A stretch of DNA of 64,000 nt, taken from positions 544,001-608,000 of the forward strand of contig CAVSHR010000012.1 of the NCBI GenBank assembly GCA_963727625.1, given 5' to 3'. Of the stretch, positions 1 through 20,797 are shown piece by piece. Origin of the DNA: an uncultured delta proteobacterium (GTDB lineage Bacteria > Desulfobacterota > Binatia > UBA9968). The notes beneath the pieces were generated by a model that saw nothing but the letters and a program-made list of their open reading frames with translations, searched no databases and had not been told where the DNA came from. Position 1 is the stretch's first letter, and each line of letters starts with the position of its first letter. The translations under genes and the position numbers were made by a program.

Positions 1-330
1 CAAGGTAATGGGCTTTGTCTGGTAGCCGTCGAAGCCCTCGGCGAGCATGGCTTGCCGGTTGTTCGTCATCGCCGATGCGGTAATAGCGACAATCGGGATG
101 CTCTGCGTCTTGGGATCGGACTTGAGCTGCTTCATCGCCGTGATGCCGTCCATACCGGGAAGCTGGATGTCCATGAGGATCAGCGCCGGAGATTGGCTCC
201 GCGCCAACTCAAGCCCGTCCTCCGCAGCTTCGCTCTCGATGGTCTTGTACCCCTTCACCTGCAGCACGTCGCGGCAGAGCTTGCGGTTCTTCTCGTTGTC
301 CTCGATAATCAAAATTAGTTCGTTAGCCAT
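1..330 (-). CDS. Single-domain response regulator (DivK/CheY-like), 3' end beyond window
   Basis: Not in ORF track. Hand translation MANELILIIEDNEKNRKLCRDVLQVKGY...ILMDIQLPGMDG...IVAITASAM...YQTKPI shows the receiver acidic pocket, phospho-Asp, Thr and KP motif. Confidence 0.92.
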   Translation of the reverse strand, partial: MANELILIIEDNEKNRKLCRDVLQVKGYKTIESEAAEDGLELARSQSPALILMDIQLPGMDGITAMKQLKSDPKTQSIPIVAITASAMTNNRQAMLAEGFDGYQTKPITL

Positions 331-347
331 AGGACTTCCGATTTTTC

Positions 348-376
348 CTCTCGCAAAGGCGCTAAGGCGCAAAGTT
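348..376. repeat. Left arm of 29-bp inverted repeat (CGCaAAG family) abutting the GxxExxY stop codon
   Basis: ctctcgcaaaggcgctaaggcgcaaagtt; 26/29 identical to the reverse complement of 764..792. Confidence 0.9.
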
Positions 377-763
377 TTAGGAATCCTCGATTCCGTTCAC
401 CGCGCGGGTTATACCTCGTTTCATCAACGCTTCACCAAAGTTTAGCGGAAATCCCAGCTTGTAACCGGTTAACCGCAGATATGTCAGAAGCTGTTTCTTG
501 TGAGCTTGGCTGACTTGCTCAACAGATTTTAACTCTATGATAACCTTGTCTTCGACAACTAAATCAGCGCGAAACGCCTCTTCGAAAGTCATCTCCTTGT
601 AATGGATCGAAATCGGAACTTGCCGTATCACCGAAAGCCCACGTTGTCCTAATTCGTAGGCCAGAATGACTTCATATACGCTTTCCAGCAACCTCGGCCC
701 AAGCTCCCGATGTACCGCAACAGCCACATCGATAATAATTGTCCCAATTTCATTCTCTGTCAT
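377..763 (-). CDS. GxxExxY family protein (PD-(D/E)XK-like)
   Basis: VHRELGPRLLESVYE, RADLVVEDKVIIELKSVE, QLLTYLRLT, LNFG; the motif Gly is replaced by Arg. Confidence 0.9.
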   Translation of the reverse strand: MTENEIGTIIIDVAVAVHRELGPRLLESVYEVILAYELGQRGLSVIRQVPISIHYKEMTFEEAFRADLVVEDKVIIELKSVEQVSQAHKKQLLTYLRLTGYKLGFPLNFGEALMKRGITRAVNGIEDS

Positions 764-801
764 AACTTGGCGTCTTTGCGCCTTTGCGAGAGAATATTCT
801 T
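764..801. repeat. Right arm of the inverted repeat abutting the GxxExxY start codon
   Basis: aacttggcgtctttgcgcctttgcgagagaatattctt; same length and same agaatattctt tail as 13158..13195. Confidence 0.9.
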
Positions 802-3800
802 ATCCGATCGGCAGAGTGAATGTGAACGTGCTGCCTTTGCCGACTTCGCTTTCCACCCAGATCTTGCCGCCGTGCAGTTCGACGAACCGTTTAGTCAATG
901 CCAAGCCCAGCCCTGTGCCTTCGCGCTTTTGCGCGTAATTCGATCCGACTTGCCGAAATTCTTCGAAGATCGCTTCCTGGTCTTCCTTGGCGATGCCTAT
1001 TCCGGTATCCGTCACCGAAATAATCGCCGCGCTGTCCCCCACTCTCGCCTCGACTTTGACATCTCCTCCCTCCGGCGTGAACTTTACCGCGTTGGTCAAA
1101 AGGTTGACGAGGATTTGTTTGATCTTGCGCTCGTCGCCAGTGAAATCGCCGAGCCGATCGTCGATCACGCGATCGAGTTTGATCCCATGCCGGCTGGCCC
1201 GCTCACGGATGAGCAAGAGCGCGTTCTCGATCGTATCTGGCAGGTGAAACGTCGTGATCTCCAACTCCATCCGCCCCGCTTCGACCTTGGAAAGATCGAG
1301 GATGTCGTTGATAAGCGAGAGCAGATGGCGCCCGGAAGTTAGAATATCGTCGGTGTATTCGGCTTGTTTTTCGTTCAACTCGCCAAAGAGTTTTTCCTGC
1401 AAGACCTCGGAAAAACCGATGATGGCGTTGAGCGGCGTGCGCAGTTCGTGCGACATGTTGGCGAGAAATTCCGACTTGTGCTGGCTGGCGGCTGCGAGTT
1501 GCTTGCCCTTCTCTTCGATCTCGCGGAACAGCCGCGCGTTGTGGATCGCCAAGGCCGACTGCGTCGCGAAGGTTTGCATCAGGTTCACCACCTCTGGATC
1601 GAACTCTCCGACCTGGCGGCGCCACACCGTCAACCCGCCCATAATTTGCTGCTCGCGCAGGATCGGCACCGTCAAAAGCGAGCGGTATCCGAGGCGGTTC
1701 AGCAACGGTCTCAACCTCGAAGTCGAGCGCTCTTGCTGATCAAAAGTATCGGGGATCTGCACCGGCGCGCGAGTGATCGCCGCTTGCCCCGTGGCGCCCT
1801 CGCCGGCCCTTATCCGAGCTGCTCTAAGCGCCTCGACCGCTTCGCTTTCCATATTGTGGCTCGCCCGCAAATTGAACTCTTGCGCCGCTTCATCATATTC
1901 GTAAATAACCCCGCAATCGGTGCCCGACAGTTCGACCGCCCGCGCGACGATGGTTTCCAGCACCGTTTCAAGATCGAGCGTCGAACTCACCGCTTGGCCG
2001 ACCTCGCTCAGCGCTTTCATCTCCTCGACGGATTCGACCAACTCGCGCGTGCGTTCTTGCAATTCCTTGAACAGCCGCACATTTTCGATAGCGATCACAG
2101 CCTGGTCGGCGAAGGTTTTCAGAAGAGCGATCTGTTTTTCGCTGAATGGCTGAACCTCTCGGCGGTAGATCGTGACCGCTCCGATCAGCATGCTCTCTCG
2201 GAGCATGGGCACATGTAGGGTTGTACGCGCACCTCCAAGCTCTACCGCTGCAACCGTGCCGGGTTGACGCTCCTGATACGCTCTCTCGATTGATATGTCA
2301 GGGATATGAATCGGGCTTCGCTGATGTATGAGTTGTCCAAGCCCCGAACTCGGGCCGGGCCTAATTGGACCCTGCCTCAAGAATTCGTTATAGGCCGGAG
2401 TTGCCCCAACAAGGCCCACAGGTTTGAATTCCTCAGCTTCATATAGGAATAGGAGACCCAAATCCGCATTGCACAGCCGTGTGGCATTGATGAGGATCGT
2501 TTGAAAGACCGGCTCAAGGTTGGTGGGTGAACTACTGATCACGCGCAGGATCTCGCTGGTCGCTGTCTGCTGCTCCAGCGCCTCGGTGATTTGGCGATTG
2601 CGTTCTTCTAATTCTTTGAACAGCCGCACGTTTTCGATGGCGATCACGGCCTGTGATGCGAAGGTCTTGAGAAGTGCGATCTGTTTCTCGGTAAACGGCC
2701 GCACCTCCATCCGGCGAGTTCCAATCACGCCGATTGCGACACTCTCGCGGAGCAACGGGGTGGCAAGCAGGGTTCGATAACCCAACCGGGTTCCCCGGCT
2801 TTCCGGATAATCCGCCGCGACCTCTTGGAAGTCGCGAATGTGAATCGTTTCGCAATCGACAATCGCTCGCCCCTGGTGCGAGTTGCGATTGAGCGGCGTC
2901 TCCGTCCCAAGCGGGCTGCTCGGAGCCGATCCATGGTTGGCGACCTTCCGCAGGCGATCGCCTTCAACCCGCATAAAAATCGCCGCATCCGTCGCCTCAC
3001 AAACCCGCGCCGCGTTCTCGGCCACAGTGTCCAACACCGGCTGAATATCAGTCGGCGAGCTGGCAATGACGCCCAAGATTTCACTGGTCGCCGTCTGCTG
3101 CTCAAGCGACTCCTTCAACTCTTGGAACAACCGCACGTTCTCGATGGCGATAACCGCTTGGTCGGCGAAAGTCTTTAGAAGACTGATTTGCTTGTCAGTG
3201 AATGGATTGACCTCCCCGCGGCGGATGTGAATCACCCCGATTGGTACGCCTTCCCGCAGCAGTGGCGTGGCAAGCGCGGTACCCGCCCCAATTAGGCCGC
3301 GGATACTTGGGAATTCAGTCACGGCTGCAGCGACGTCCTGCACATGAACGGTCTGCCGCTCGATCACCGCTCGCCCGGTGATTGAGCCGTGGTCTACCAG
3401 GCGCTCTGAACCAATTGGCCGTGCCGGCAGTGAACCGCAGTTGGCGACAAGCCTGAGAGAGCTTCCGTCTAGACGCCAGACCAGCGCGTCTTCTGCTCCA
3501 CAAACTCGCAGCGCGTTTTTAGCCACAGTGTCGAGCACCGGCTGGATGTTTGTCGGTGAATTGGCAATGACACCCAAGATTTCGCTCATCGCCGTCTGCT
3601 GTTCCAAAGACTCTTTGAGTTCTTGAAACAGCCGCACGTTCTCGATCGCGATCACAGCTTGATCGGCGAAAGTTTCGAGCAGCTTGATTTGCGCCGGGGT
3701 AAACGGGCGCACCTCGGTGCGCCGTGAGATCAGGAGTCCAATTAGGTCCCCATGTAGGCGAAGAGGAACAGCCAAAAACACGCGCTTCGGCCCCGGAACT

Positions 3801-6800
3801 GCCAATGGGATATCGTTTTGCGTGCGAATATCTGGGATATGAAGCGTGCCATGCTCCCGGACCCAGCGAGCCGGTGGTGAATCAATAGTGATCTCGATAC
3901 CGGGTACGGGTACGGAGCCATAATGAGCCCGGGGGACCAAAGCGTCGCCCTCGCGTAACCGCAGCACCGTATCATCGATCCCACACACGCGCGCCGCGCT
4001 CTCGACGATAGCATCAAGCACCGGCTGCACGTCCGTCGGCGAGCGGCTGATGATGCCGAGCACCTCGGATGTCGCCGTCTGGTGCTCCAGCGCTTCCCTA
4101 AGATCTGCGTTACGCTCCTGAATTTCTTTGAACAGCCGGACGTTTTCAATGGCAATTACAGCCTGGGCCGCAAAGGTTTCGAGCAGTTTAATTTGTCGAT
4201 CAGAAAATGGACGAACCTCGGTTCGCCTGATGTTAATCAAGCCTATAGGTGTACCCTCTCTGAGCATCGGCGTGCTTAAGAATGTCCGTGCTCCCGAGGA
4301 CCCTGCCATATCAGGAAATTCACTCTTCACGGCTTCGACGATATCGTTCACTAGGATCGTTTTTCCGGTAAGAATTGCTCGGCCTGCAGGGTGTCCTAAG
4401 GTCGTGCGCACAAACTCGGGCGCTGGTGCAGGTCCGAAGGATGCCACCCGTCGATGGCCGTCTCCCTCGACCAGACGAATCTGCGCGTCCGTTGCCTCAC
4501 AAAGTCGGGCGGCATTCTCTGCGACGACATCCAACACCGGCTGAATATCAGTCGGCGAGCTGGCGATAACGCCTAAAATCTCGCTCGTCGCAGTCTGCTG
4601 CTCCAACGATTCCTTTAGCTCTTGGAACAGCCGCACGTTTTCGATCGCGATGACCGCCTGGTCAGCGAAGGTTTCAAGAAGTTTGATCTGCGCTGGGGTG
4701 AAGGGACGCACCTCAATGCGCCGTGCAACCAGGACTCCAATGAGTTCCCCATGTAGGCGAAGGGGAACGGACAAAAACACGCGTTTCGGCCCCGGAACTA
4801 AAAATGGGATATCGCTTTTCGTGCGAATATCAGGGATGTGAAGCGTGCCATGCTCCCGGACCCATCGGGCCGGTGGGGAATCAATAGTGATCTCGATACC
4901 GGGTACGGGTACGGAACCATAATGGGCCCGGGAGATCAAAGCGTTCCCCTCGCGTAACCGCAGCATCGTATCATCTATCCCACAAACCCGCGCGGCGCTC
5001 TCGACGATGGCGTCGAGCACCGGCTGCACGTCCGTCGGCGAACGGCTGATGATGCCGAGCACTTCAGATGTCGCGGTCTGATGCTCCAGGGCTTCGCGAA
5101 GTTCGGCGTTACGATCCCCAAGCTCACGGAACAAGCGCACGTTCTCGATGGCGATGACCGCTTGATCGGCGAAGGTCTTTAGAAGAGCTATCTGCTTCTC
5201 GGTGAAAGGCCGGACCTCCGTGCGGCGAATACCGATCGCGCCAATCGCCACACCTTCGCGCAGCAGCGGTGTGCCGAGCATGGTGTGAATACCTCGCTGC
5301 TTTGCGCGATCTTGTTCCTCTGGATATTCGCCGGGAAGCGCGACAATGTCGACAACATGAATCGTCTGGCCGTCGGCAACCGCTCGTCCGTTCAACGAGT
5401 CGCGCGAGAGAGGCGTTTCAAATCCAATCGGACTCCCCGGAACCGACCCGTAGGTGGCGACCTTTCGAAGGCGAGAACTGTCCACGATCATGAAGATATT
5501 GGCGTCATTCGCTCCACAAATTTGCGCCGCATTTCTAGCGACGGTGTCCAGGACCGGCTGAATATCCGTCGGCGAACTGGCGATGACGCCTAAAATCTCG
5601 CTCGTCGCTGTCTGCTGCTCCAACGACTCCTTGAGCTCGTTGAACAACCGTACGTTCTCGATGGCGATCACCGCTTGATCAGCGAAGGTTTTGAGGAGAT
5701 CTATCTGTTTCTCGGTGAATGGATTGACCACCGTACGACGCATAAAGATCACACCAATTGCCATCCCTTCGCGCTGCAGCGGCGCGGCAAGCACCGTTCG
5801 AATGCCGCCTCGTTCGGTGCTGGCTTGAGACTCGGGGAACTCGGTTGCGTTCAGAGCCATCAAATCGTCAATGTGAACGACCCGGCGATCAATCACGGCA
5901 CGCCCGACTACTGAACGACGGTCGATTGGCCGGGGTGAAACGTCAGGCTCGAATGGCCCGTAATGCGCACGCATGGCTAAGACGTCGCCTTCAATGAGTC
6001 GAATAACCGCATCATCCGCACCGCATACTCGCGCCGCGCTGGCTGCTACTTCGTCCAAGACCGGCTGAATATCCGTCGGCGAACTGGTGATGACGCGTAG
6101 AATCTCGCCCGTCGCGGTCTGTTGCTCTAAGGCCTCGGTCAAATCGCGGTTGCGTTCCTGCAATTCTTTGAACAGCCGCACGTTCTCGATGGCGATGACA
6201 GCCTGGTCGGCGAAGGTTTTCAGCAAGGCAATCTGCTTGTCGGAAAAGGGGCGGACCTCCAAGCGTCGGATCAAAATCGCGCCGATCGGCGCGCCCTCGC
6301 GCAGCAGCGGCGTCGCCAGGGTCGTGCGGTGACCCGTCTGTTGCTGGTAACCCTTGATTTCCGGATATTCGCCGTCAACTTCCGCGGCCAGATCGTGGAC
6401 GTGAATGGTTTGACGGTCGATCATCGCCCGAGCCGCGGGAGATTGGCGGTTCATAGGTATATGGCCCGCCGGTATTAGCGGTCCGTAGGATGCCGCCCGG
6501 TGCGCGAGATCGTTCTCAAGGCGAAAAATCTGCGCATCGAATGACTCGCACAGCCGCGCCGCGCTTTCCGCAACGGCGTCGAGCACCGGCTGCACATCGG
6601 TGGGTGAGCGGCTGATGATGCCGAGCACCTCGGCCGTCGCTGTCTGATGCTCCAGCGCCTCGCGCAACTCCGCGTTACGGTCACCGAGTTCTTTGAACAA
6701 GCGCACGTTTTCTATGGCGATAACGGCTTGATCGGCGAAGATCTTGACGAGCGCGATTTGCTTCTCCGAAAATGGACGCACTTCCTTGCGTCGGACAATG

Positions 6801-7804
6801 ATCACCCCGATCGGATCGCCTGCGCGCAATAAAGGCACGCCAAGCACACTTCGAATGCCTATGGTCACCGGTCCCAGGGAAAAATCCACTTCGGGCGCTT
6901 GCACGTCAGGAACATGGATAGTCTGGCGGTCGAGCACGACGCGGCCGGAAAGGTTGCGCCGATCCGCGATCGATTCCTCGCCGATACGCGCCGTCGGAAT
7001 CAGACCGGTCGAGGCCGCGCGTCTGATGATATTCCCGGTAACCCGGTGAATAGTCGCTTCGTCGGCATCACACAATCGCCTGGCATTTTCGACGACAGCA
7101 TCCAGCACCGGCTGAATATCCGTCGGCGAACTGGCGATGACGCTTAAAATCTCGCTCGTCGCCGTCTGTTGCTCCAATGATTCCTTCAGCTCGTTGAACA
7201 GCCGCACGTTCTCGATGGCGATGACCGCTTCGTCGGCAAAACTCTCGAGCAGTTTTATTTGTTTGTCTGTGAAAGGGCGGACTTCCGTGCGCCGGATGTT
7301 AATCACACCGAGAGGCACACCGTCGCACATAAGCGGCGTGGCAAGCGCGGTTCTAATGCCGGTAGCATTTTGGACAGTCCGGTATTCTGGAAACTCCGTT
7401 TCAATTTCTTCCGCGATGTCATGTATGTGAACCGTTTCCCGATCGATGACAGCTCGGCCCACCGGAGTCCCGCGAGTAATGCTCCGCATTCCAATGGCTG
7501 TCGTCGGCATTGACCCATATACCGCCATACGTTGCTGAACATCACCCTCAACGCGAAAAATCAGAGCATCGGCAGCATCACACAACCGAGCAGCATTTTC
7601 CGCAATCGTATCCATCACGGACTGAAGGTCGGTTGGCGTGCGTGCGATCACGCGCAGGATCTCACTCATTGCCGCGCGCTGCTCCTCACCGTCGCGAATT
7701 TCTTGCGCTTGCGCGGCGATGGTCTTCTTCAGCTTCGAGATCGAATTCGCCGGGGACGCCGCGCGCGGTTTTGATTTGGTGGTCTTTGAGATCTTCTTAG
7801 CCAT
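800..7804 (-). CDS. Cytoplasmic sensor histidine kinase with 12 tandem GAF domains, HisKA and HATPase
   Basis: 11 [11 protein letters not shown] plus one [13 protein letters not shown] end; H-box [15 protein letters not shown]-box [21 protein letters not shown]; start taken at MAKKISK. Confidence 0.95.
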
Positions 7805-7841
7805 TCGGACACATAAGACTAAACCAGCTATATACAATGTA

Positions 7842-8006
7842 AAAATCCGAAATCCGAATATCGAAATCGGAAATAAAGCAGAGCCAAATAAACCTCAAAT
7901 CCAGAAAATCCAAAACGCTGCCTTCTAACCTTCCCGTTTGGAGCATCGTCGTCGCTTTGTTTTTCATCATTTTGAATTTGTTGCGGATTTCGAGTTTCGG
8001 ATTTGA
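7842..8006. repeat. Inverted pair of CGAAAT(C/T)-heptamer repeat arms around a short spacer
   Basis: aaatccgaaatccgaatatcgaaatcggaaata ... tttgttgcggatttcgagtttcggattt. Confidence 0.75.
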
Positions 8007-8262
8007 CTTCACTCAGGGTTCTAGAAAACCTTCCGGCGGAGCGGAATAAAGGTCGGATGTCACATTGGTCACACCCGGCACACTTTTTACTAGCCTTACG
8101 ACTTTGTCTTCCAAGCCACGATCGACTCTGCCCTTGACGTAAATGTGGCCACCTTCGGCGCGAACTTCGAGTGCCAATCCTCCTACGTTGGGCGCTGCAA
8201 ATAACATGGCATGGACCCGAGACCCAAGCGCGAAGTCATGGAAAGCCTGGTTGGACTCGGGA

Positions 8263-8887
8263 GTGAATAACCACCGCCTTAAAGGCGGTGGCATCGAATA
8301 ACGGACTGAAAGTCCTGGGTTCCGGCTACAAGCCGGCTTAAAGTTCCCGCCCCCAATGGGCGGCTGTAGACGGTCTTAACCGTCTACTTTGAAATCATCG
8401 TCACGATCATGATTCTGATTCGATATATATTCCGCGATCACCTCGTCGGTCACATTCCCGCTACTGCAGCAGAAGTATCCCCGTGCCCACAGATGCCGAC
8501 CCCAAAACTGCTTCTGCAAATGCGGAAATTCTCCCATCAACTTGTACGAACTCTTCCCCTTCAACCATTGGATCAACCGACTGATTGTCACTTGCGGCGG
8601 TATCGACACGAACAGATGCAGATGGTCCTTCGCCACATGTCCCTTCAGGATCGTTACTTCGTGTTGCCCGCAGATCTCACGGATTATGTCTCTTACTCGC
8701 GTCGCCACTTCCCCCGTCAACGCTGCCCGATGGTATTTGGTCGTCCATACCAGATGCAAATGTATCTCGAATACCGTGTGTGCTCCGCGTCGATACTCCT
8801 TCATCCGCACACACTACCACAGTGTCACAAAAACTTGCTAAAGCCGTCGCCTAAAGGCGAGGGCTTCAACCCTCCCAGAGTGGGACA
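8263..8887 (-). mobile_element. IS200/IS605-family element, tnpA only (625 bp), inserted 3' of TCAC
   Basis: Subterminal hairpins at 8841..8866 and 8271..8291; TCAC at both cleavage sites on the minus strand; splits the host ORF cleanly. Confidence 0.9.
8376..8804 (-). CDS. tnpA: IS200/IS605 Y1 (HUH) transposase
   Basis: HLVWTTKY, DHLHLF (HUH), LKGKSS, LWARGYF, YISNQ. Confidence 0.95.
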   Translation of the reverse strand: MKEYRRGAHTVFEIHLHLVWTTKYHRAALTGEVATRVRDIIREICGQHEVTILKGHVAKDHLHLFVSIPPQVTISRLIQWLKGKSSYKLMGEFPHLQKQFWGRHLWARGYFCCSSGNVTDEVIAEYISNQNHDRDDDFKVDG

Positions 8888-9529
8888 GTGAGCTGATACT
8901 CTTCGAGCTTCGCGGCCTCCAGAATCAGATGTTTCGCCCCTTCTCGGCGCATCGTGCTCATATTGAGAATCAGATCATAACGACTAGGATCGCGCCAATC
9001 CGCGCCAAACATCGCCATAAGCCGGCGACTGCGGGCTTTATCGACCTCTTCTATATAGTGGCGCGCCGCGACGTCAGTCAGATTTTGTCGTGACCGGACT
9101 TGTCCAATGCGAAATTCGATTGGCGCAGTTAAAAGTACCTTCAGCACGTGGCCGATACCGGCCAAAAGCTCATGACCCACATGGCCGTGGTAAATCAACT
9201 TTCCGTCATGGGCCAGCTCGCACAGCGCGGCTTGGAGAGCTATCCGGTAGGGCCGCAGATCGAGCAGGAGACGCTCCCACCAGTGCGGGCCTTTTTCGAG
9301 GATCTCGTTGAGTTTTGCTTGGGGAATACCATAGCGACGGCTCGCTTCCACGAGCAACTCGCGCCCAACGCAACGATAACCGAGAGCTTGGGCCACAGTC
9401 CCGGCCAATTCCTGACCTTCGCCGGAAGCACCCTGATAGATTGTGATGATCGGCATGCCAGCTACTCTCCTAACCTCTAAAAGCTACCAACCTCCCCGCG
9501 TGAAAATCTGAAACAAACCCACAGATGCT

Positions 9530-9694
9530 AAATCCGAAATTCGAAGCACGAAATCCGAAACAAACTAAAATCAACTGAATCCTAAATTCAAATATCAAAA
9601 CTCGATCTGGTCGATAACGCTTGGCACATTCTAATTGTTTTGTATTTCATGTTTTGAAATTGTTTCGGATTTCGAAATTCGTGCTTCGAAATTT
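9530..9694. repeat. Second inverted pair of CGAAAT(C/T)-heptamer arms
   Basis: aaatccgaaattcgaagcacgaaatccgaaacaa ... ttgtttcggatttcgaaattcgtgcttcgaaattt. Confidence 0.8.
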
Positions 9695-9719
9695 TCCCGA
9701 GTTGCTTACCTTTCACCCC

Positions 9720-11798
<2,079 letters not shown>

Positions 11799-11986
11799 AG
11801 AAAAAGACCGGGATGAGAAAAAGCCGCGGGCGCACGAAAGCAAGGAAGAGGTGCAATTGTGGCGTTATGAGAGGCGCGCTCGGGGGTTGAGTTTCTTTTA
11901 CGCCAGTCGGTTGCCGGGCGTCAAGGAATGGTTTCGGAGGTTGTGAGGCGTCAAAGGTTAGGGGTTAGGCAAGCCGGAAAACATCA

Positions 11987-12075
11987 CTCGCGCAAAGAGT
12001 GCTAAGGACGTTAAGGAAACACGATTTACAGGTACGGTGGCTGCTCCTTTGCGACCTTCGCCTACTTCGGGCGCG
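11987..12075. repeat. Degenerate empty inverted pair of the CGCaAAG family
   Basis: ctcgcgcaaagagtgctaaggacgttaagg ... cctttgcgaccttcgcctacttcgggcgcg. Confidence 0.6.
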
Positions 12076-12101
12076 GACATTTATATCTGGAGAGGTTGAT
12101 T

Positions 12102-12130
12102 CCCCCGCAAAGGCGCAAAGACGCCAAGTT
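12102..12130. repeat. Left arm of CGCaAAG inverted repeat upstream of the TA module
   Basis: cccccgcaaaggcgcaaagacgccaagtt; 27/29 identical to the reverse complement of 764..792. Confidence 0.88.
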
Positions 12131-12237
12131 AACAAAGCCCACGGAACAAAGAACTTATTTCATTAGACTCGGAGTCGAGTCTGATGAGCTCTGCAGATCG
12201 GCAGTGGCGCTTCCGATAATCATGATAAAAGGAACCG

Positions 12238-12474
12238 ATGGTTCAGCGGTCCCGTTCACTCCCTGCGCGCCCAAAACATTCTTTTTTTCTCTGGGGGCCG
12301 CGGCAAACCAGGAAAACTACTCTGCTCTGGTCGGTTTACCCAAGCGCTCATTGGGTCGATCTGCTCGACACCGATACCCTACTTTGCACCTTGGCGACTT
12401 TGCGGGAGAAAATCCGAATCCTAGAGAAAAAATTCTCGTGCAAAGATGCAGGGTATATGGACCGCGAGGTTTGA
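12238..12474 (+). pseudogene. N-terminal remnant of an AAA+ ATPase (DUF4143-associated type)
   Basis: SFFLWGPRQTRKTTLL is a degenerate Walker A (GPRQTGKTTL), followed by WVDLLD; similarity is then lost. Confidence 0.7.
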
Positions 12475-12508
12475 CTGCTCCGGACAGATGGACTAACCTT
12501 AGTCCACT

Positions 12509-12748
12509 ATGACTAAGGTGAATATCCATCAGGCGAAGACACAATTTTCCCGGCTGGTCGACCTGGCCGCGAGCGGAGAGGAAATTGTTATCGCAAAATC
12601 TGGTAAACCCGTGGCTCGGTTAGTCCCCTACAAGCAGAAAGGCGCAGTGCGCCGGCCGGGAAGCCTGCGCGGCAAGATTCGGATCAAGAGAAATTTCGAC
12701 GAAACACTTCCGAAAGAGCTGTTGGCTTCGTTCGAAGGAAAGTCGTAA
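12509..12748 (+). CDS. Phd/YefM family antitoxin
   Basis: VNIHQAKTQFSRLVDLAASGEEIVIAKSGKPVARLVP. Confidence 0.93.
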   Translation: MTKVNIHQAKTQFSRLVDLAASGEEIVIAKSGKPVARLVPYKQKGAVRRPGSLRGKIRIKRNFDETLPKELLASFEGKS

Positions 12749-12751
12749 GCG

Positions 12752-13147
12752 GTGCGCGTGCTGCTCGACACTCACGTCCTCCTCTGGTGGTTCTCCGACG
12801 ACCGCAAGCTTGCGAAGGACGCGCGGGCTATCATTGCCAATCCCGACAACGACGTGCTCGTGAGCGCGGCGTCGGCTTGGGAAATATCGATCAAAGCGGC
12901 GCTAGGTCGGCTCGAAATTGAATTGGATGACCTGGAAGATGCAATCTTAAAAAACGGTTTTCGGCCGCTACCGATCGGGTTGCGCCATGCCGTAACTGCC
13001 GGTCGTCTGCCCAATATACACCGTGATCCCTTCGATCGGATGCTCGTTGCTCAGGCCAGTATCGAGGAACTGCGAGTGGTTTCTCACGACCGGGTGTTCG
13101 AGCGTTACGGACTCAAGGATGGGGGATTGCCACCGATCATAGTGTGA
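12752..13147 (+). CDS. vapC: VapC/PIN-domain toxin
   Basis: LLDTHVLLW, SAASAWEISIK, HRDPFDRMLVAQA. Confidence 0.93.
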   Translation: MRVLLDTHVLLWWFSDDRKLAKDARAIIANPDNDVLVSAASAWEISIKAALGRLEIELDDLEDAILKNGFRPLPIGLRHAVTAGRLPNIHRDPFDRMLVAQASIEELRVVSHDRVFERYGLKDGGLPPIIV

Positions 13148-13157
13148 ATCGTACCGA

Positions 13158-13241
13158 AACTTTGCGCCTTGGCGTCTTCGCGGCAGAATATTCTTTTCCC
13201 GGATTCAGATGATCTCCCGCCAGGGCGCAAAGACGCCAAGG
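13158..13241. repeat. Right arm closing the TA segment, followed by a further left arm
   Basis: aactttgcgccttggcgtcttcgcggcagaatattctt (13158..13195) then ctcccgccagggcgcaaagacgccaagg (about 13214..13241). Confidence 0.85.
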
Positions 13242-13424
13242 TAGGAATTAACCCAAAACCGACAATAAAAACGGAAGTCCATCATCCTGAATGAATCAAT
13301 GCGTGAGCAGTTCAAAACTTCACTGATTGTGAGCAACTCGATGGACCGGAGAATTGTTAAAATACCAATGGTAAAGTTCCATGCAATTGCCAAATTATTG
13401 TCGGTTTAGGGTTAACGATTTCTT

Positions 13425-14537
13425 TTAGTGATGTGCGGCCTGTTCGTCCAAAGACAGATTGACGTAATGGTGTGACTTCGAGACCGCGCCGATGCCTTTG
13501 ACGATTGTCTGCCAGTGCTCGCCCTCATCCTCGCTGTAAAAAACATCGCCGTCGGTGGTGCCGGCGAAAATCGCATAACCGCCATTCCACACATCCATCG
13601 CCATGCCTTCGATGTTGGCGCGGATGTGTTCCGGTAGTCCCCCGGTCAAAATATCCCAACTCTTGCCGCCGTCGCGGCTGCGCGCGATGCGCGCGTCGGC
13701 GGTGTGGAGCTTTCGCCACGTGCCTGGACCGGTCTTGGCGCCGGCGACGTAAAGCAAATTCGGATCGCCGGGATGAACGAAGAACGGATCGACGTAGCCG
13801 ATACGGAAATCGCGCGGCGTCATGCTCTGCCAAGTTGCGCCGCCGTCGCTGCTGACGCAGAATCCCGCCGGCGTTTCCGGCCCGCAGTTGGTCGTCGGCG
13901 CGGTGCCGTAAAGCTTGCTCGGATCGTTGGTGGGAATTAATACGCGGTGGGCGTCGGGGTTGATGCTATCGATGGTCGTCCAGGATTTGCCGCCGTCGGT
14001 GCTGCGCAAAAAACCGCCGACTTCGACGGCGACGTGAATGATGTTTGGATCTTTCGGATGGAAAGTGATGCTCTTCGCGTGCGCCTGATGCGGCGGGCCG
14101 GGGAAGGTCCATTTTTCCACCCCCGGCACCTGGCGCAACCCCGGCAACTCGGTCCAACTCTTGCCGAGATCGTCGCTGTAAAACAAGTGCGCCGGCTGGG
14201 TGCCGGCGTAGACGCGCGGCTTGCCGTTTACAACTTGAGTGGCCAGCGAATAAATCTCCTTGTCGCCGATGCCGTTATCGCGCCGCTCCCAGGTCTTGCC
14301 GAGATCCGAACTGGCGTAAATCTCACAACTATAGGTTCCGCCGAACAACGTCTTGGTCGTGGGCTCGAAGATAATCGAGCTGAAATGTTTTCCCGGGACC
14401 ATGGTTCCCTGGCCCTCCCAGGAGCCGTTGCGTTTTTGAAATGCGAAGATGCCGCCGACGGTACCGACGAGCAATTTATCTTTTGCAGTCTCGCCCTGAG
14501 TGAGCGACTGCCCTCCGGGGGACAAACATATAAACAT
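13425..14537 (-). CDS. BNR/Asp-box repeat beta-propeller protein
   Basis: Six S-x-D-x-G-x-(T/S/H)-W Asp-boxes. Confidence 0.88.
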   Translation of the reverse strand: MFICLSPGGQSLTQGETAKDKLLVGTVGGIFAFQKRNGSWEGQGTMVPGKHFSSIIFEPTTKTLFGGTYSCEIYASSDLGKTWERRDNGIGDKEIYSLATQVVNGKPRVYAGTQPAHLFYSDDLGKSWTELPGLRQVPGVEKWTFPGPPHQAHAKSITFHPKDPNIIHVAVEVGGFLRSTDGGKSWTTIDSINPDAHRVLIPTNDPSKLYGTAPTTNCGPETPAGFCVSSDGGATWQSMTPRDFRIGYVDPFFVHPGDPNLLYVAGAKTGPGTWRKLHTADARIARSRDGGKSWDILTGGLPEHIRANIEGMAMDVWNGGYAIFAGTTDGDVFYSEDEGEHWQTIVKGIGAVSKSHHYVNLSLDEQAAHH

Positions 14538-20654: not shown

Positions 20655-20797
20655 GTTCCAAGTTCAACGTTTAAAGTTCAAGGTCCGGTCCAAGAAACGC
20701 GCCTGTGAGCTCCCTCGGCTTACCCAACCGTACTCCTTAGTTTCAAAGCTTGGACCCAAACCGTCTGGCTTTAAACGTTGGACCTGGAACCTTGAAC
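20655..20797. repeat. Inverted GTTCAA heptamer arms
   Basis: gttccaagttcaacgtttaaagttcaagg ... tttaaacgttggacctggaaccttgaac. Confidence 0.7.

Follow-up and report, generated by a model that had tools for sequence, protein, structure and literature searches.

A GxxExxY gene between inverted arms of tandem octamers: a candidate horizontally spread cassette of bacterial operon spacers

The locus and its protein

The window analysed here is a 64,000-nucleotide stretch from an uncultured delta proteobacterium (Desulfobacterota; Binatia; UBA9968; assembly GCA_963727625.1, contig CAVSHR010000012.1, positions 544,001 to 608,000), and the feature under study is a small gene of the GxxExxY family held between the two arms of an inverted repeat. 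The open reading frame (ORF; 377..763, minus strand, ATG at 763-761, TAA at 379-377) is intact, encodes 128 aa, and belongs to the GxxExxY/PDDEXK_3 type. Read in gene orientation, the upstream arm (764..792, minus) begins 7 nt past the stop codon (800-802) of a histidine kinase gene and consists of CTCT plus three octamers, CGCAAAGG CGCAAAGA CGCCAAGT, which stop 1 nt short of the ATG. The downstream arm (348..376, minus), its reverse complement, begins directly after the TAA and is followed by a 17-nt spacer and the ATG (330-328) of a response regulator gene. The whole unit, arms and ORF together, measures ~445 bp.

An inverted-repeat search recovered the arms as 29 nt each, 90% complementary (26/29), with 387 nt between them, which is exactly the ORF from start codon to stop codon; an earlier note on this DNA had described them in the same way, as flush with TAA and ATG. 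The 9-nt period that the note gave them needs correction, since the window arm is built of three tandem octamers CGCNAAGR, with CTCT in front, and has a period of 8 nt. A chance inverted repeat is ruled out by shuffle controls, both in the locus set described below and in the window, where a three-octamer scan gave 8 matches against 0-1 in 20 mononucleotide shuffles and an arm 11-mer (at most one mismatch) occurred 16 times, where 100 dinucleotide shuffles had 4.26 on average and 11 at most.

The upstream neighbour is a multi-GAF histidine kinase of 2345 aa (800..7837, minus), whose C-terminal 600 aa gave GAF, HisKA and HATPase_c in a Pfam scan, and the downstream neighbour is a co-oriented receiver-domain gene (1..330, minus, cut by the window edge), so that the kinase-regulator setting reported in the earlier note stands. 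The absence of a Shine-Dalgarno sequence does too: no canonical one precedes the GxxExxY ATG, where only the arm's own AAGG/AAGA runs are found. Promoter-like or terminator-like sites were not found on the coding strand of the kinase-ORF-regulator stretch. Again as the note had it, no recombinase or integrase is visible among the 65 ORFs scanned in the 64 kb; the unit's own putative nuclease is the obvious candidate for that part. A known RNA family was considered and rejected, positions 1-14000 having no Rfam match at E <= 1 and no rRNA match either.

Profile searches place the ORF in TIGR04256 (134.1 bits, cut-off 35) and PF13366 (PDDEXK_3; 134.5 bits, cut-off 22). In an alignment of 42 sequences the PD-(D/E)XK catalytic residues E27, D67 and K79 are invariant and E77 is conserved at 90% or more, and the window protein has all four; by profile match and catalytic residues it is thus a predicted PD-(D/E)XK nuclease. 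The G-x-x-E-x-x-Y motif itself is incomplete, because Gly24 is Arg in the window (R-L-L-E-S-V-Y), as the earlier note had seen. This is unusual in a column that is at least 90% Gly, relatives of 88% identity included; E27 and Y30 (at least 90%) are both kept. Apart from this one substitution the protein is a full-length member, and we keep it in the GxxExxY family. Its nearest relatives share 78-91% identity and are labelled Candidatus Binatia or Deltaproteobacteria, and the family as a whole comprises 16,812 clusters at 50% identity (E <= 1e-3). A search by sequence found no relative in the PDB, and the ESM Atlas contains neither the window sequence nor a model of the homologue P0022. A label of anti-phage defence was tried and dropped, PADLOC giving just weak Cas4-like matches (E 0.0015) and PHROGs one weak match.

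Two side observations concern the protein family. Several proteins of ~250-295 aa (P0121, P0128, P0132, P0136 and others) align to the query in two stretches and are tandem-fused double GxxExxY domains. At one of the loci introduced below (L025:7817-8848 and 9132-9503) a GxxExxY gene with CAC-type arms lies directly downstream of cas1, and the Cas4-like profile matches of its protein are weak. Relatedly, a paper available to us in part mentions a GxxExxY gene that adjoins a CRISPR-associated reverse transcriptase and was called cas4 by another tool (PMC8934634).

Gene and arms as one unit across phyla

Genome contigs were scanned with the GxxExxY protein, and the best 80 of at least 549 relatives (63-78% identity) were taken with flanks of up to 10 kb; these loci are numbered with the prefix L. 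Reading 70 nt on each side of the ORF revealed the same kind of arm in most of them, in the variants CGCARAGR, CACARAGR and CACGGAGR. The 66 labelled rows of the set carry 24 different phylum names, which rules out a genome-specific repeat. With the arm motif defined as three octamers C-R-C-N-R-A-G-R matched at 18 or more of 21 positions, the 1,138,432 nt of the 80 loci plus the window contain 307 arms, against 6-8 in composition-preserving block shuffles; at a stricter threshold of at least 19 positions the figures are 293 and 0-1. Exactly three octamers are present in 301 of the 307. Directly outside the first octamer, and outside the scanned motif, stands a CTC conserved at 74/90/94%; the outer flank of the arm is T-rich and the inner flank A-rich. 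Being rich in T on the 5' side and in A on the 3' side, these flanks lengthen the stem of the hairpins, which are not intrinsic terminators.

The arms are placed with respect to the gene. Among the nearest upstream plus-arms 30 of 43 end -1 to 3 nt from the ATG, and 28 of 39 downstream minus-arms start -1 to 6 nt past the stop; the strict motif is found on both sides in 23 of the 80 loci and on neither side in 10. Of 111 adjacent plus/minus pairs, 22 are spaced 387-399 nt, the length of the ORF, and 70 are spaced 3-92 nt and form empty hairpins. A zone of 700 nt around GxxExxY ORFs or fragments, 12.9% of the DNA, holds 256 of the 307 arms, a 34-fold excess in density. The stop codon has an arm within 30 nt in 34 of 79 GxxExxY ORFs and 48 of 1139 other ORFs, approximate counts because the gene sets are greedy longest-ORF calls. 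The earlier note had proposed looking for inverted arms at the boundaries of GxxExxY ORFs, and they prove strongly enriched there. Among more distant members from cultured bacteria (34-53% identity), those of Sphingomonas parapaucimobilis, Bernardetia and Bacteroides finegoldii are armed on both sides; in Gemmatirosa the ORF matches in two frames and the sole arm structure is a tight hairpin downstream. The arm period is 9 nt in Bacteroides and Gemmatirosa.

Arm type follows the protein. A quick IQ-TREE tree of 76 rows (75 loci plus the window; L001, L015, L028, L037 and L078 were left out for broken ORFs) has limited resolution with its 128 columns, and the 16 loci with CAC-type arms nevertheless form one clade (Shimodaira-Hasegawa-like approximate likelihood ratio support, SH-aLRT, 91). 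Over the 68 typed rows the CGC/CAC label changes once on this tree, whereas 500 label shuffles average 14.6 changes and never have fewer than 11; an eight-state arm subtype needs 14 changes against a shuffled mean of 32.4, and host phylum 43 against 52.8. The CAC clade covers at least nine named phyla, and Planctomycetota and Thermodesulfobacteriota each have both arm types. Arm type thus tracks the protein tree rather than host phylum, gene and arms move together across hosts, and the unit has crossed phylum boundaries many times by horizontal spread.

The outer ends of the arms are also the ends of homology. Two copies in one metagenome-assembled genome (L033 and L034) are similar from the outer CTCTCGC inward and unrelated outside, and among four loci from different phyla (L027, L066, L079 and L059) homology likewise begins at the outer end of the arm. 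Empty alleles, which the earlier note had suggested seeking, exist for family members at two junctions. In S. parapaucimobilis the filled allele reads fabD-TAA-tc-[arm][ORF][arm]-SD-fabG (SD, Shine-Dalgarno), and in S. paeninsulae the fabD-fabG spacer is 30 nt long without an arm; in B. finegoldii the order is radA-[arm]-ORF-[arm]-FAD-protein gene, and at the same junction Parabacteroides distasonis has a 14-nt spacer without an arm and Phocaeicola massiliensis an unrelated 225-aa ORF without arms. The members of these filled/empty pairs are only ~72% identical, so that exact junctions are not readable. Arms and ORF are accordingly one unit of inheritance and of presence or absence.

Empty units occur as well. 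Tandem arrays of arm-loop-arm units stand beside many of the genes (L012, L014, L044, L060), and those of L014 retain the first eight codons of the gene (MTENEIGT), which marks them as deletion derivatives; relative to the window, the orthologous loci L004 and L001 each have one extra empty unit. The genes next to full units are varied (fabD/fabG, radA, NifU, aminotransferase, glycosyltransferases, flagellin, pilins, cas1, response regulators). In 63 of 73 loci the gene upstream runs in the same direction as the GxxExxY gene, and in 43 of 62 the genes on both sides do; the unit is lodged in short spacers between co-oriented operon genes, apparently without a promoter of its own.

The window copy is old. 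The order kinase-GxxExxY-regulator is common to the window, L001, L003 and L004, so the insertion is older than their divergence. Among the orthologues of the window, L003 and L004 the proportion of differences is 0.64-0.85 at synonymous sites (pS), which are saturated, and 0.10-0.15 at nonsynonymous sites (pN), and dN/dS (the ratio of nonsynonymous to synonymous rates) is 0.07 between L003 and L004. The core of the downstream arm is identical at 24 of 24 positions in these three loci and that of the upstream arm at 22 of 24, in the midst of diverged spacers; in L001 the ORF is interrupted, its own two arms have decayed and a neighbouring empty hairpin is intact. The window copy is therefore fixed between kinase and regulator, with protein and arms under purifying selection. 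The earlier note had wondered whether the Arg marked a decaying gene, and the intact full-length ORF, the retention of E27, D67, E77 and K79 and the low pN relative to pS (0.12-0.15 against 0.77-0.85) give no sign of decay. Its suggestion of a mobile or excisable cassette stands as regards a discrete, inverted-repeat-bounded unit with filled and empty alleles elsewhere, and falls as regards recent mobility of the window copy, whose gene order is shared at saturated synonymous divergence. The genome scan, made with the GxxExxY protein and not aimed at the kinase-regulator junction, brought up no empty allele of that junction.

Readings of the arms

The nearest known system is the ORF-bearing intervening sequence (IVS) of 23S rRNA genes, as in Leptospira and Coxiella. 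There too a small sense ORF lies in a host transcript without a promoter of its own, terminal inverted repeats that can form a stem enclose it and consist of short tandem repeats up to the ATG, and a sporadic distribution is ascribed to horizontal transfer. The parts of the Coxiella paper available to us (PMC4990558) describe three tandem GACAGAT heptamers plus a degenerate fourth directly before the ATG of the S23p ORF and report that RNase III cleaves the stem at the first repeat; they state that S23p proteins have no known function, and they cite an old idea of the IVS as a mobile element. The differences are that the cargo here is a predicted PD-(D/E)XK nuclease (PF13366) and not a four-helix bundle (PF05635), that the arm sequence repeats every 8 nt (9 nt in Bacteroides and Gemmatirosa) instead of every 7, that the site is an mRNA spacer between protein genes and not the tip of an rRNA helix, and that RNase III excision is shown for the rRNA elements only.

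The same loci also hold genes of the IVS protein family (PF05635/TIGR02436) outside rRNA, two of them as ORFs (L074:3890-4285 and L017:3420-3779) and one as a fragment (L019:2494-2739, minus). Four tandem heptamers precede all three (GGTTYCT, ATCAGTA, CTGTCRG), and complementary heptamers follow the stop codon in L074 and L017. PF05635 genes with tandem-heptamer inverted arms in the same loci, together with the Coxiella heptamers, make the IVS analogy drawn in the earlier note an apt one. The octamer and heptamer cassettes taken together imply that at least two families of cargo, with a different arm type for each, share the design of a small ORF between inverted arms of tandem 7-9-nt repeats.

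The reading that we tentatively favour, and that we regard as plausible without calling it probable, takes the window feature for a copy of a small selfish cassette that has spread horizontally and whose arms serve as sequence-specific sites, probably for the nuclease that it encodes. In the mechanism that we infer, the arms would be recognition sites with a defined sequence, more than the two sides of a stem, and would be read by the nuclease encoded between them, which would target DNA, whether as duplex, hairpin or cruciform, and so copy or maintain the unit, much as a homing endonuclease does or a REP-associated tyrosine transposase (RAYT) with its repetitive extragenic palindromes (REPs). 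The 28-bp stem in a read-through transcript would then be a secondary, IVS-like property. Recognition of its own arms as DNA appears the most economical reading because the unit encodes nothing besides a nuclease whose predicted active site is intact.

Comparison of the arms themselves points the same way. At 12 variable positions partner arms agree at 8.2-8.9, non-adjacent arms of the same locus at 8.5 and arms of different loci at 5.8, and no pair-specific covariation of partner arms was found. On the sense strand G.U mismatches do not outnumber A.C mismatches (41 vs 48 and 14 vs 14; in empty hairpins 89 vs 119 and 51 vs 92). The conserved positions (C.C, AG and the outer CTC) are constant from phylum to phylum. 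Constant positions, the lack of partner preference and the lack of a G.U excess together suggest that the arms are read by sequence and not by pairing.

Homing endonuclease genes and small insertion sequences offer partial precedents. Like them, the unit is a very small nuclease ORF between conserved genes, present or absent among relatives, and like insertion sequences it has terminal inverted repeats. Unlike insertion sequences it has no DDE or HUH transposase and no clear target-site duplication was found, and homing endonucleases lack conserved inverted arms. At ~445 bp it is, to our knowledge, smaller than the known autonomous insertion sequences.

Several observations weigh against the cassette reading. 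The 80 loci are one subfamily chosen by the gene, and more distant members are represented by four plasmid records only. Arm type shows essentially one change, from CGC to CAC, which is co-inheritance and not proof of repeated co-evolution. The window locus has been static since before the window, L003 and L004 diverged. Direct identity just outside the arms, 3.03 of 8 positions against 2.64 for shuffled partners (maximum 3.26 in 1000 shuffles, 31 pairs), gives no clear sign of a target-site duplication. Of the 307 arms, 51 lie more than 700 nt from any GxxExxY gene, and the arms at 12.1-13.2 kb of the window have no such gene with them. In one clade (the Acidobacteriota loci L005, L009, L014, L019 and L024, plus L016) the arms around the gene are reversed, with a minus-arm that precedes the ATG by 14-32 nt and a plus-arm that follows the matched coding stretch by 8-48 nt and the stop by 0-27 nt, an arrangement that a simple terminal-inverted-repeat transposon does not predict. 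Cassettes with a four-helix bundle as cargo share the architecture and lack a nuclease fold, so that propagation need not be encoded by the cargo. Finally, in the literature searched we found no published function or activity for any GxxExxY protein.

The main rival, which we consider possible but on balance unlikely, places the function in RNA: the arms would form a ~28-bp stem around the ORF in the operon transcript, to be cut by RNase III or to gate translation. In the gating form the purine-rich upstream arm would supply tandem Shine-Dalgarno-like sites, which the downstream arm would hide until ribosomes finishing the upstream gene or the ORF opened them; the arms would be expression signals carried along with the gene. 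Consistent with this, the closing stem is present in both the minimum-free-energy and the centroid fold of 320-830 (z = -1.94; 3 of 100 shuffles fold as well), and the arms abut start and stop codons as a ribosome-opened or RNase III-cut stem would want. The mostly co-oriented neighbours, the lack of promoter- or terminator-like sites on the coding strand of the kinase-ORF-regulator stretch, and flanks that do not make the hairpins intrinsic terminators fit as well, as does the Coxiella stem with heptamers before the S23p ATG and an RNase III cut at the first repeat, so far as the available parts of that paper go (PMC4990558). On the other hand, G.U is not in excess over A.C on the sense strand, and this leaves the earlier note's proposal that the mRNA loops the gene out as a long stem without support. 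Partner arms are no more complementary than non-partners, and in the reversed-arm clade the purine-rich arm comes after the gene. The arm sequence, outer CTC included, is kept across phyla and at saturated synonymous divergence, and a pure stem needs none of this. The DNA-site and RNA readings may also both be true at once.

An improbable explanation is that the arms are host repeats unrelated to the gene, either sites of a host regulator or nucleoid protein (IHF/HU) or repeats like REPs and bacterial interspersed mosaic elements (BIMEs), which collect in intergenic DNA together with small accessory genes. One point in its favour comes from the genome paper on Geobacter metallireducens (Aklujkar et al. 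2009, PMC2700814), the available part of which reports 21 pairs of 'class 2' sites, the two members on opposite strands and a variable distance apart, and proposes IHF/HU-type regulators for them. A class 2 site is three tandem repeats TCTCCGTS[Y], the other classes having four octamers or five heptamers (PMC2700814). Reverse-complemented, that repeat gives the CACGGAGA arm variant. The arm is apparently the same as that of the GxxExxY genes; the sites differ in being known from one genome, as putative regulator sites, and the available part of the text makes no link to ORFs between them (PMC2700814).

The window arms that lack a GxxExxY gene, and empty hairpins in BIME-like alternating arrays, would also suit host repeats. 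As in REP/BIME-RAYT systems, the arms are extragenic inverted repeats that form arrays of alternating orientation with regular spacers (L012, L014, L044, L060), and the enzyme gene itself lies between two inverted copies; but the enzyme here is of the PD-(D/E)XK type and not an HUH/Y1 (IS200/IS605-type) transposase, and the arm is three tandem octamers where a REP is one palindrome. A RAYT gene is single-copy and vertically kept, whereas the gene here is multi-copy and horizontally spread. Against host repeats of any kind stand the 25- to 34-fold enrichment beside GxxExxY ORFs within the same loci, the abutment of arms on ORF ends, an arm type that goes with protein clade and not with host phylum, the total lack of arms in empty alleles, and the fact that some empty units (L014) are deletion derivatives with the first eight codons. 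The same screen supplied a true REP/RAYT- or IS200-like contrast at L009:11426-11935, where an IS200-like Y1 transposase ORF lies within a 34-nt hairpin-type inverted repeat.

Integron cassettes, whose attC sites have GTTRRRY/RYYYAAC cores, are likewise compact, promoterless, co-oriented ORFs with an imperfect inverted-repeat site between units, and the window includes a toxin-antitoxin pair among its arm-flanked genes, but it is very hard to credit that the arm pairs are attC-like sites for an unlinked integrase, given that no integrase or other recombinase is found among the 65 ORFs of the 64 kb, that Rfam has no match in 1-14000 at E <= 1, that arms stand on both sides of the ORF with no such cores seen (by eye), and that the units are single insertions in housekeeping operons such as fabD-fabG rather than arrays beside attI.

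A bolder version of the cassette reading would make GxxExxY plus arms an autonomous ~445-bp mobile element, the 128-aa nuclease recognizing the triple-octamer termini and copying the unit into operon spacers, and would join it with the four-helix-bundle/heptamer cassettes in a pan-bacterial superfamily of tandem-repeat-armed hairpin cassettes, of which the rRNA IVSs would be a special case landed in rRNA helices. We consider this doubtful, though worth stating, because if true it would account for where IVSs come from, a standing question for the ORF-bearing ones of rRNA since the early 1990s, and would assign a function to the GxxExxY and S23p families. Short of that, the shared architecture, with three or more tandem 7-9-nt repeats to an arm, gives both families a testable role, and the arms are defined cis sites for binding, cleavage and mobility assays.

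What appears to be new in print is the pan-phylum unit of gene and arms, the inheritance of arm type with the protein, and the parallel heptamer-armed class for the IVS protein family. No paper linking these arms to GxxExxY genes was found in the literature searched, which omits most subscription journals; the arms alone were apparently noticed once before, in G. metallireducens, judging from the available part of that paper (PMC2700814).

Operon models should expect inserts of this kind, even in core operons such as fabD-fabG, and annotation is affected as well: the arms are open in several frames in many loci and yield spurious or extended ORFs. Thus the annotated Sphingomonas GxxExxY coding sequence (L081:1471-1899, 142 aa) reads through the downstream arm to a stop in the Shine-Dalgarno region of fabG, and low-complexity ORFs over arm arrays (e.g., L060 and L043) are read as spurious.

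Other arms and inverted repeats in the window

A second group of octamer arms forms an array (11985-13241) between another histidine kinase gene (9720..11843) and a BNR-repeat gene. That kinase is a 707-aa paralogue of the one upstream of the GxxExxY unit and has the same C-terminal half; the translation of the longer kinase (800..7837) shows, by eye, a long run of near-identical modules, each closed by a conserved linker. Within the array a plus-arm (12106..12129) pairs with a minus-arm (12381..12404, 18/21 motif positions) around 251 nt. An ORF fragment at 12238..12474, without a Pfam or PADLOC match and by eye the start of an AAA-ATPase-like gene, falls in this stretch. Next come a Phd/YefM antitoxin gene (12509..12748) and its paired PIN toxin gene (12752..13147), the two together flanked by arms of which one, a plus-orientation arm near 12427-12450, is degenerate and seen by eye only. 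A minus-arm (13159..13182) lies 11 nt past the PIN stop codon and forms a tight hairpin with a plus-arm 35 nt farther on (13218..13241), for which no downstream partner was detected. PIN genes also adjoin arms in L042 and L077.

A near-empty arm pair at ~11990-12070 was likewise seen by eye. Since a low-threshold scan of the window (15/21) is at noise level, with 139 matches against 102-124 in shuffles, the basis for the degenerate arms near 11990-12070 and 12427-12450 is visual inspection. A further 18/21 match inside the kinase gene (910-933) has no CTC and was taken as chance.

Three more inverted repeats were recorded in the window. The first (9530-9573 / 9650-9693; 44 nt at 73%, with a core of 24 nt at 88%) lies directly downstream of the stop codon of kinase 9720..11843; its arms are about four tandem heptamers (CGAARNN) around a loop of 76-109 nt without an ORF, and the whole resembles an empty heptamer-armed hairpin. 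The second (13248-13268 / 13395-13415; 21 nt, 95% complementary, 126 nt apart) directly follows the last octamer arm and is without the tandem-repeat design. The third (20655-20676 / 20769-20790; 22 nt, 91% complementary, 92 nt apart) lies in the spacer between two genes of the minus strand, for a TPR protein and an alpha/beta hydrolase.

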